DNA of 64,000 nt from Clostridia bacterium (lineage in GTDB: Bacteria > Bacillota > Clostridia > Oscillospirales > CAG-272). The notes below the pieces were generated by a model. The model saw nothing but the letters and a program-made list of their open reading frames with translations. It did not search any database and was not told where the DNA came from. Numbering within the stretch: position 1 is the stretch's first letter; each line of letters begins with the position of its first letter. Shown here one piece after another: positions 24,354 to 25,757 of this stretch. The translations under genes were made by a program, and so were the position numbers. Location: NCBI GenBank assembly GCA_017467085.1, contig JAFTSW010000059.1:1604-65603 (forward strand), written 5' to 3'.

Positions 24354-25757
24354 ATGCCAAGATTAAAAATAACCGAAACGGTTCTTCGCGGCGCGCAGGA
24401 ATCCTTAGCCAATGCCCGTATGACAACGGCTGAAATGGTGCCCATTTTGCCTATTCTGGATAAGGTGGGCTATCATTCCTTAGATGCCTGGGGCGGTGCT
24501 ACCTTTGACACCTGCCTGCGTTACCTGAACGAGGACCCCTGGAAAAGACTGCGGATTATCCGTGCCAACGTCCGAAACACCAAGCTGATGATGGTGCTTG
24601 GCGGACAGTGCCTCTTGGGATATTCCCATTATCCCGACGATATCGTGCAGTTCTTCGTGCAAAAATCCATTGCCAACGGCATTGATATTTTGCGTATGTA
24701 TGACCCTTTGAACGACGTGCGAAACCTGGAGGTTCCCATTCGTGCGGCGAAGCGGGAAAAGGCAACCGTGCAAGGCACCATTTGCTGCACGGGCGAGAAT
24801 GCCGACAATGGCAAGTATTACCTGGATTATGCCAAGAGGCTCTTGGATTTGGGGGCAGACTCTATTTGTATCCAGGATACCGCAGGGCTTTTGCGCCCGT
24901 ACAGCGCCTATCAGATTATTAAAACACTGAAGGCGTATGATCCCAATATACAAATTCAGCTTAGCACCCACTATACCTCGGGATTGGCTTCTATGACCGT
25001 TCTAAAGGCGGTGGAGGCTGGGCTTGATATCGTGGATACCGCCATCTCCCCCTTCTCTCTCGGTGCTTCTCAGCTTTCTACCGAAACGATTTTGTCCACA
25101 CTGCGTAAAACGCCCTATGAAACCGAGCTTGATACCTACGCCTTGAACCAGGCGGCTGAATACTTCACCAGCATTAAGCTCCGCTATTTGCGTACAGGAC
25201 AGATGAATGAACGCATTTTTGATACAAACGTTTCCGCCTTGGAAACGGGTGTTTCAGGTGAAATGCAGCATCACGTACAAAAACGCCTTCGCCAAGCCAA
25301 AAAGGAAAGCCGCTTTGAGGAGGTTATGGAGGAAATTCCTCGGGTTTTGGCAGACGCGGGACACGTTCCCTTGGTTTCCCCTATATACGAGATTATCGGC
25401 ACGCAAGCCATCATCAACGTGTTGACAGGTGAGCGCTACAAGGTCGTATCGACCGATTTCCGCGAGTTAATCCGCGGCAGCTACGGCACGCTTCCCTCTC
25501 CCATCAGCCGCGATTTCCAAAGGAAAATCGTGAAGGACGGGCAGATTGTCACGGAGCGCCCTGCCCTTCAGCTGGCGCCTGCCGTTGAAAAATACCGTAT
25601 ACAGGCCGCCCCTTATGCCGAGCAGGAGGAGGACCTTCTCTCCTTGGCACTTTTTGAGCAAAGCGCCACCCAGTTCTTTGAATGGCGCAAAAAGCAACGC
25701 TATAATCTGGACGGACGGGGACGGGTTTCCTCTAAATCCGCCGTTCATCCCATATAA
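24354..25757 (+). CDS. 5S / OadA-type (HMGL-like TIM barrel + PYC_OADA) carboxyltransferase homologue, metal-site degenerate
   Basis: [66 protein letters not shown] match the family. The canonical motifs read LRGAQES, ICIQDT and LSTHYTSG instead of LRDAHQS, (A/L)KDM and LHCH. Confidence 0.85.
   Translation: [467 protein letters not shown]

Follow-up and report, generated by a model that had tools for sequence, protein, structure and literature searches.

The window analysed here, a stretch of 64,000 nucleotides from a Clostridia bacterium (assembly GCA_017467085.1, contig JAFTSW010000059.1), carries on its plus strand, at positions 24354..25757, a gene for a 467-aa paralogue of the OadA/5S-type carboxyltransferases, named P0001, in which the metal site, the substrate-binding arginine and the biotin pocket have been lost. 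We regard P0001 as probably a pseudoenzyme, which would serve, without catalysis, as a structural or regulatory part of a remnant complex that lacks biotin. The gene has lost three of its four metal ligands, is under purifying selection, arose in place and co-occurs with an intact oxaloacetate decarboxylase (OAD) operon in the same genome. For brevity, proteins and operons that have lost these residues are called dead below.

A carboxyltransferase fold without its active site

The open reading frame is translated without a stop, and its product belongs to the HMGL-like/PYC_OADA fold. It scored above the Pfam gathering cut-offs for both PF02436 (PYC_OADA; 94.4 bits, cut-off 27) and PF00682 (HMGL-like; 46.5 bits, cut-off 29), and HMMER matched it to Vibrio OadA (PDB 2nx9, E = 4.7e-110), to the beta subunit of a two-subunit pyruvate carboxylase (5ks8_C, E = 3e-104) and to the transcarboxylase 5S subunit (1rqb, E = 2e-101). 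An AlphaFold model with 56 homologues as input (predicted local distance difference test 91, predicted template modelling score 0.89) could be superposed on 5ks8_C, 2nx9 and 1rqh with template modelling (TM) scores of 0.90-0.92 and root-mean-square deviations (rmsd) of 1.6-1.8 Å. An earlier note, made from the letters alone, had assigned P0001 to the 5S/OadA-type fold and had proposed a superposition of this kind on carboxyltransferase crystal structures; the Pfam matches, the PDB E-values (1e-101 to 1e-110) and the model all agree with that assignment. On the NCBIfam equivalog NF008985 ("oxaloacetate decarboxylase subunit alpha"), P0001 scored 567.9 bits, below the cut-off of 718, a score that does not discriminate live from dead proteins, as a homologue with intact ligands from genome G160 also reached just 567. 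The labels given to the dead proteins in databases are "pyruvate carboxylase subunit B" or "oxaloacetate decarboxylase alpha".

In OadA, a Zn2+ ion sits at the base of the barrel, and Lys178 has been proposed to accept the carboxyl group (PMC2881705). The catalytic motifs of P0001 aligned without gaps to 2nx9, 5ks8_C and 1rqb in HMMER, and a MAFFT alignment with 121 database homologues gave an identical register. Relative to Vibrio OadA, G13 of P0001 stands for Asp17, Q174 for Lys178, S204 for the first His of the HxH motif and H206 for the second. Thus, RDAHQS has become RGAQES (in LRGAQES, with G13 and Q15), (A/I)KDM has become IQDT (in ICIQDT, with Q174, and T176 in place of Met), and HxH has become S204-T205-H206 (in QLSTHYTSG). 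Three of the four metal ligands are therefore replaced and one, H206, is retained; in the column of G13, Asp is present in 100% of 222 canonical homologues. The losses extend beyond the metal site: the block corresponding to RGQNLLGYRHY has G83 at the substrate Arg and also contains S91, TPxSQ is changed to SPIYE, and GVSGEMQHH stands in place of the QxPGGxxSN funnel motif. We take the Arg of RGQN to be substrate-binding and the TPxSQ motif of pyruvate carboxylase to supply the proton-shuttle Thr and contacts to biotin; roles other than those of Zn and Lys178 are presumed from the pyruvate carboxylase and 5S structures.

As a result, P0001 lacks each of the features expected of an active OadA, 5S or pyruvate carboxylase carboxyltransferase subunit, namely the metal Asp, the carbamylated Lys and the pair of HxH His, as well as the substrate Arg, the Thr and Ser/Gln of TPxSQ and a biotinylated carrier partner. 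The motif strings quoted in the earlier note (LRGAQES, ICIQDT and QLSTHYTSG) and its C-terminal PYC_OADA stretch are all present in the translation, and its statement that most metal- and substrate-binding residues are missing holds, with the refinement that the second His of HxH survives. Its further suggestion, that the substitutions be examined in orthologues, proved informative, as they are conserved in a clade of four species and absent from about 45 canonical relatives. An alternative register placing Asp, Lys and His-x-His in the ligand columns, which the note had named as fatal to its reading, was looked for and none was found; it was rejected because HMMER, MAFFT and the structure matches are concordant. 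An assembly or sequencing error was likewise rejected, since the substitutions are common to four independent metagenome-assembled genomes.

Purifying selection on the dead subunit

Among the window's genome (G000) and two of the other genomes carrying the dead form (G244 and G182), pairwise ratios of nonsynonymous to synonymous substitution rates (dN/dS) for P0001 were 0.05-0.08 (dN 0.07-0.14, dS >1.2); because dS is saturated in these comparisons, the ratios are approximate. Over the same genomes, the three partner genes in the operon gave values of 0.03-0.2 (0.12-0.21 for the anchor and 0.03-0.17 for the carrier), and active OadA gave 0.005-0.03. Relative to the active OadA in these genomes, the dead subunit thus evolves at a rate 6-10 times higher, and it is clearly constrained.

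The distribution of changes along the protein was assessed with 200 columns whose conservation across 222 canonical proteins is at least 95%. Of these, 144 (72%) are unchanged in every one of the four dead copies, 39 are changed in all copies and 17 in some. Among the 56 changed columns, half differ from one dead copy to another; for example, motif 1 reads LRGAQES or LCGAQSA, and TPxSQ is replaced by SPIYE, APMID or SPLYE. With half of the changed columns variable and 144 of 200 intact, the pattern is that of a relaxed pocket in a maintained fold. P0001 combines homology to the enzymes, absence of their catalytic residues and purifying selection, the features by which a candidate pseudoenzyme is operationally recognized.

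The operon ending in P0001

P0001 is encoded by the last gene of a tight four-gene operon, with intergenic gaps of 10, 35 and 11 nt. A promoter at 22115..22143 (plus strand) consists of TTGACA, a 17-nt spacer and a TG-extended TATAAT, matching the consensus at 12 of 12 positions. The first gene, 22180..23649 (plus strand), encodes a homologue of the 12S/MmdA-like acyl-CoA carboxyltransferases. Its likely start is the TTG at 22180, which is preceded by an AGGAGA ribosome-binding site; the start called mechanically, ATG 22147, lies 4 nt past the -10 hexamer, near the expected transcription start, and the orthologues are 489 aa long. All four species with the dead operon share the -35 and -10 hexamers, which are identical, as well as the AGGAGA and the TTG start, in the midst of DNA that cannot be aligned.

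The 12S-like protein contains PF01039 (248 bits) and matched PccB and 12S structures in the PDB with E-values of 1e-63 to 1e-67. On NCBIfam mmdA it scored 284 bits against a cut-off of 999, and its whole subfamily falls far below that cut-off. The PccB motifs DSGGARIQEG and GPCAGG are represented in it by NSAGADIYEG and GDCTGI, respectively. We had considered that this degeneration (GDCTGIASP, NSAGADIYEG) was specific to the dead operon, and rejected the idea because the canonical five-gene operons described below depart from PccB in the same way. Among 91 columns that are invariant in the 12S-like proteins of those operons, six are changed in the dead operon, all conservatively.

The second gene, 23660..23950 (plus strand), encodes a 96-aa protein with one N-terminal membrane helix in the position of OadG/MmdD-type anchors. 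It had no Pfam match above cut-off, and it occupies the same operon slot as the anchor gene of the canonical five-gene operons. The third gene, 23986..24342 (plus strand), encodes a homologue of the biotin carboxyl carrier protein (BCCP) in which EAMKM is replaced by EAMEI, that is, Glu takes the place of the biotinyl-lysine; EAMEI is identical in the carriers of all four species. The dead carrier retains the N-terminal segment MKKFNITVLGKTYEVLVEDMG, which is nearly identical to that of lysine-bearing carriers of the same operon type (type A) and unlike that of the type-B carriers described below. In OAD, the tail of the gamma subunit binds the association domain of the alpha subunit, next to the carrier (PMC7274780). 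Retention of MKKFNITVLGKTYEVLVEDMG in the dead carrier fits continued assembly. No gene for the OadB pump was found in the operon or elsewhere in the 64-kb window, and the operon therefore lacks the linked OadB by which a Na+-translocating complex would be recognized.

Distribution and order of loss

The survey of homologues covered 101 genus genomes and 151 family genomes. A single 5S-type gene, with a product 50-56% identical to P0001, is present in most of them, and wherever the flanks could be read this canonical gene was the last in a five-gene operon of the order 12S-like, anchor, BCCP, OadB and 5S. At about 45 such loci, LRD(S/A)HQS, FRGQNILGYRHY, C(I/V)KDM, LHTHYT, TP(S/T)SQ and EAMKM are retained with hardly an exception. 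Three more species representatives (G244, G182 and contig JBGVMO010000198) have the dead form, with 81-88% identity to P0001, and the operon has the same gene order, dead motifs and EAMEI in all four species. It lies at one syntenic locus, with coaE on one side and a leucine-rich repeat (LRR) protein plus a paralogue of EF-G on the other. Its EF-G side is also seen beside the four-gene operons of G160 and G220, which have intact ligands; the five-gene operons are located at other sites. Six genus genomes have both OAD operon types, and in every one of them type A is the four-gene operon; a four-gene operon was not found in G208 or G163.

A maximum-likelihood tree grouped the four dead proteins in one clade (SH-aLRT 100). 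Its sister consists of three metagenomic proteins, P0005-7, in which Lys has become Q and the substrate Arg has become G, HxH is kept and the Asp is mostly kept; at positions C86, C145 and S204 the residues of this "mid" clade differ from those of the dead clade. No member of the half-dead clade was found in the genome and metagenome contigs that were scanned. The dead clade and P0005-7 together are nested within a clade characterized by DGQQS in place of DSHQS, which includes the four-gene operons of G160 and G220. The 5S homologues of the DGQQS clade (P0009-P0015, P0034, P0036, and those at L066 of G160 and L093 of G220) have intact metal ligands and often RGQS for RGQN, and in G160 and G220 they are encoded in four-gene operons without OadB. 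The DGQQS change may mark a shift in substrate or role that preceded the loss of the metal site.

The nested tree and the synteny together indicate that the decay, apparently stepwise, occurred in place. In the order that we propose, the first step would have been loss of the pump gene from a type-A operon, in a lineage with a type-B OAD operon as well; the 5S subunit would then have lost the Lys and the Arg; and the Asp, the first His and the lysine of the carrier would have been lost last.

A second dead clade

A four-gene operon of G227 (L068:4603-8099, in the order 12S, anchor, BCCP and 5S) also encodes a dead 5S subunit, which reads TFCAGAAAL, YGQN, VRDY and LRTF at the motifs, beside a carrier that retains the biotin lysine (EAMKV). 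A database search added eight further 90%-identity clusters that are 53-62% identical to the G227 protein, giving a clade of nine clusters (P0125-P0133). Throughout this clade the carbamyl-Lys is replaced by Q, L or R and the substrate Arg is lost, and the Asp is often lost. The columns lost in both dead clades are H15, Q16, R83, K174, M176, S306, N307, T342, S345 and Q346, and the region best kept in both is the C-terminal one, 363-450. In the tree, supported branches leading to ligand-intact proteins separate the two clades. An approximately unbiased (AU) test of a single dead clade gave p = 0.0385, a marginal value for a group that was defined post hoc from the tree and has long branches. 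The second dead clade thus probably arose independently of the first, an origin that the tree favours but does not prove.

Other decarboxylase and biotin genes in the genomes

The genome from which the window comes (1.94 Mb, 94% complete) carries on another contig, C7, a complete OAD operon with intact motifs, here called type B, which consists of OadG, a BCCP with EAMKM, OadB and the carboxyltransferase part of OadA. G244 and G182 also carry a complete, intact type-B operon. The carrier of the C7 operon is the sole lysine-bearing one in the window's genome, which also encodes a biotin ligase (BirA); neither a biotin carboxylase nor another Carboxyl_trans gene was found there. Across the genus, biotin carboxylase and methylmalonyl-CoA mutase were found in none of the genomes searched (five for each family; G000, G244, G182, G027, G117 and G160 overall), and a FabF-type ketoacyl synthase was absent from four of the five searched. 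These absences point to a lack of fatty-acid synthesis de novo and of a succinate-to-propionate route. They also leave the 12S-like subunit of the widespread five-gene operon without an obvious source of an acyl-CoA substrate. The production of malonyl-CoA or handling of methylmalonyl-CoA by the complex, which we considered, is unsupported for the same reasons.

In all genus genomes checked there is a second OadB gene, which is unlinked. In G000 it is split over contig ends (C3:1-2830 and C15:1-426, loci L089 and L090), and in G244 it lies at L091:5974-9473; in both genomes it is situated directly downstream of a membrane H+/Na+-pyrophosphatase gene (for C3, this assignment is by the pyrophosphatase only). 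No carboxyltransferase, carrier or anchor gene is present beside it. The possibility that the unlinked gene is the relocated pump gene of the dead operon was rejected, since genomes with five-gene operons have the unlinked copy too.

Interpretation and alternatives

Carboxyl transfer by P0001 is very unlikely, because the metal site, the carbamyl-lysine, the substrate Arg, the biotin pocket and the biotin of the partner are all gone. Most likely, P0001 descends from the OadA/5S subunit of a Na+-pump oxaloacetate decarboxylase, and its TIM barrel and C-terminal domain would have been retained by selection as a fold. Assembly of the four proteins could be mediated by the C-terminal portion of the 5S subunit, by the carrier's N-terminal segment and by the membrane anchor, and the resulting remnant complex may work at the membrane as a structural element, or as a regulator or competitor, e.g., of one of the two OadB pumps. 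More tentatively, and as a possibility that we rate as less likely than not, the whole operon, with its dead 5S subunit, carrier lacking biotin, remote 12S-like core and anchor, might encode a silent, membrane-tethered mimic of the OAD head-piece, which is made in quantity, occupies or regulates the beta subunit of the Na+ pump or the active OAD, and arose more than once in gut Clostridia.

Several points weigh against regarding P0001 as a pseudoenzyme subunit of a remnant complex. The assembly of the four proteins, their tethering to the membrane and their structural or regulatory role are what we infer from the observed losses and conservation. The dead form is limited to four species. H206 and D175 are kept and 18 formerly invariant positions are newly fixed, so a new function in the old pocket is possible. 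Furthermore, the 12S-like partner has hardly changed, and the complex might retain an activity for which biotin on its own carrier is dispensable.

The last of these points leads to an alternative that we consider unlikely, though less so than the two discussed after it: the dead 5S subunit and carrier could be scaffolds, with the 12S-like subunit still an enzyme that is tethered by the anchor to an OadB pump and that either uses the biotinylated type-B carrier in trans or catalyzes a biotin-independent decarboxylation. The small number of changes in family-invariant columns of the 12S-like protein, all of them conservative, would be expected if it were still active. The genome supplies BirA and one biotinylatable carrier, an OadB gene stands unlinked beside the membrane pyrophosphatase in every genome checked, and in G227 a dead 5S subunit does occur with a lysine-bearing carrier. 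However, the type-B carrier differs in its N-terminal assembly segment, the 12S-like subfamily as a whole is remote from MmdA and PccB in score and in its altered glycine motifs, and the lack of mutase, biotin carboxylase and, in four of five genomes, FabF leaves no obvious supply of acyl-CoA.

It is quite improbable, in our judgement, that the barrel has been neofunctionalised as a metal-free or differently liganded active or binding site, e.g., as a sensor of 2-oxo acids. The 18 once-invariant positions that are fixed anew in the three dead proteins compared (G13, D44, G83, C145, Q174, T176, S204 and K275 among them) would fit such a site, as would the retention of H206 and D175 and the recurrence of the Lys-to-Gln change in both dead clades. 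Yet half of the changed columns, motif 1 and TPxSQ included, vary among the four dead copies, which looks like relaxation, and at C86, C145 and S204 the sister "mid" clade has other residues. Finally, P0001 could be a functionless relic in decay that has not yet acquired stops. Its redundancy with the intact OAD operon, the failure to find the four-gene operon in G208 and G163, and an evolution several times faster than that of active OadA could all be read in this way. But the reading frames are full-length in four species, dN/dS is low even allowing for saturated dS, nearly three quarters of the family-invariant columns are intact, and the consensus promoter and ribosome-binding site are conserved. 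Given the conservation of P0001 and, along with it, of its three partners, and given the strong promoter, we regard a relic as highly improbable.

Relation to known systems

Vibrio cholerae OadA shares the full-length fold with P0001 (Foldseek TM 0.90/0.93, rmsd 1.8 Å, 40% identity), and an anchor and a biotin-carrier module accompany each of the two. In contrast to the Vibrio protein, P0001 has G, Q and S at the Zn-site Asp17, Lys178 and first His, its carrier and association domains are unfused, and its operon has no pump gene. The 5S subunit of Propionibacterium shermanii transcarboxylase (1rqb/1rqh; TM 0.91) is, like P0001, a free-standing protein, about 470-500 aa long, whose gene accompanies those of a 12S-type carboxyltransferase and a small, separate carrier; P0001, however, has lost the residues for metal, substrate and biotin, its carrier is without the lysine, an anchor is present and the 12S-like partner is remote. 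The best structural match to P0001 is the pyruvate carboxylase beta subunit of Methylobacillus flagellatus (5ks8_C; TM 0.92, rmsd 1.6 Å), which differs in having a fused BCCP and an intact active site, whereas the genus genomes checked (n = 5) are without a biotin carboxylase partner.

The canonical five-gene operon of the genus and family is the direct evolutionary source of the dead operon: its 5S subunit is 50-56% identical, its gene order is the same except for OadB, and its carrier has the same N-terminal segment. Unlike the dead operon, it has intact motifs and EAMKM and possesses OadB. We take this canonical operon to resemble the split OAD of Enterococcus faecalis (OadA, OadD, OadB and OadH).

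No earlier description of a dead OadA-, 5S- or pyruvate carboxylase-type carboxyltransferase was found in a full-text literature search of limited coverage. To our knowledge, pseudoenzymes are well known in eukaryotic signalling and are rarely documented for core bacterial metabolic complexes. The nearest known concept is that of the plant BADC proteins, lysine-less BCCP paralogues that inhibit the heteromeric acetyl-CoA carboxylase and act through its assembly (bioRxiv 10.1101/634550; PMC12706156). As in that case, a dead paralogue of a component of a biotin enzyme is kept by selection, and the neighbouring EAMEI carrier is the direct analogue. BADC is, however, a single plant protein of the carrier type; here the system is bacterial, the catalytic subunit is dead too, and any inhibition is putative. 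If the operon is indeed a silent head-piece mimic, it would be a bacterial counterpart, at the level of a whole complex, of regulation by BADC. Regulation of Na+-pump decarboxylases by the dead complex, should it occur, would mean that energy conservation in these abundant uncultured gut anaerobes is subject to a new level of control.

One genus holds a live, ancestor-like operon, ligand-intact intermediates (G160 and G220), the half-dead P0005-7 and a fully dead form, and therefore offers a good case for study; the second, probably independent, dead clade that has lost the same residues adds to its value. Metabolic reconstructions that rely on the present annotation would wrongly count the dead proteins as active enzymes.

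Sequences downstream of the operon

A terminator-like hairpin with a T-rich tail, assigned with low confidence, follows the last gene at 25808..25833 (plus strand). On the minus strand, positions 25814-29509 of the window contain the genes for the LRR protein, which is of the BspA type, and the EF-G paralogue. In each of the four species, these two genes show synteny with the dead operon; the LRR protein diverges rapidly, with identities of 53-82%, and the EF-G paralogue slowly, with identities of 90-94%.

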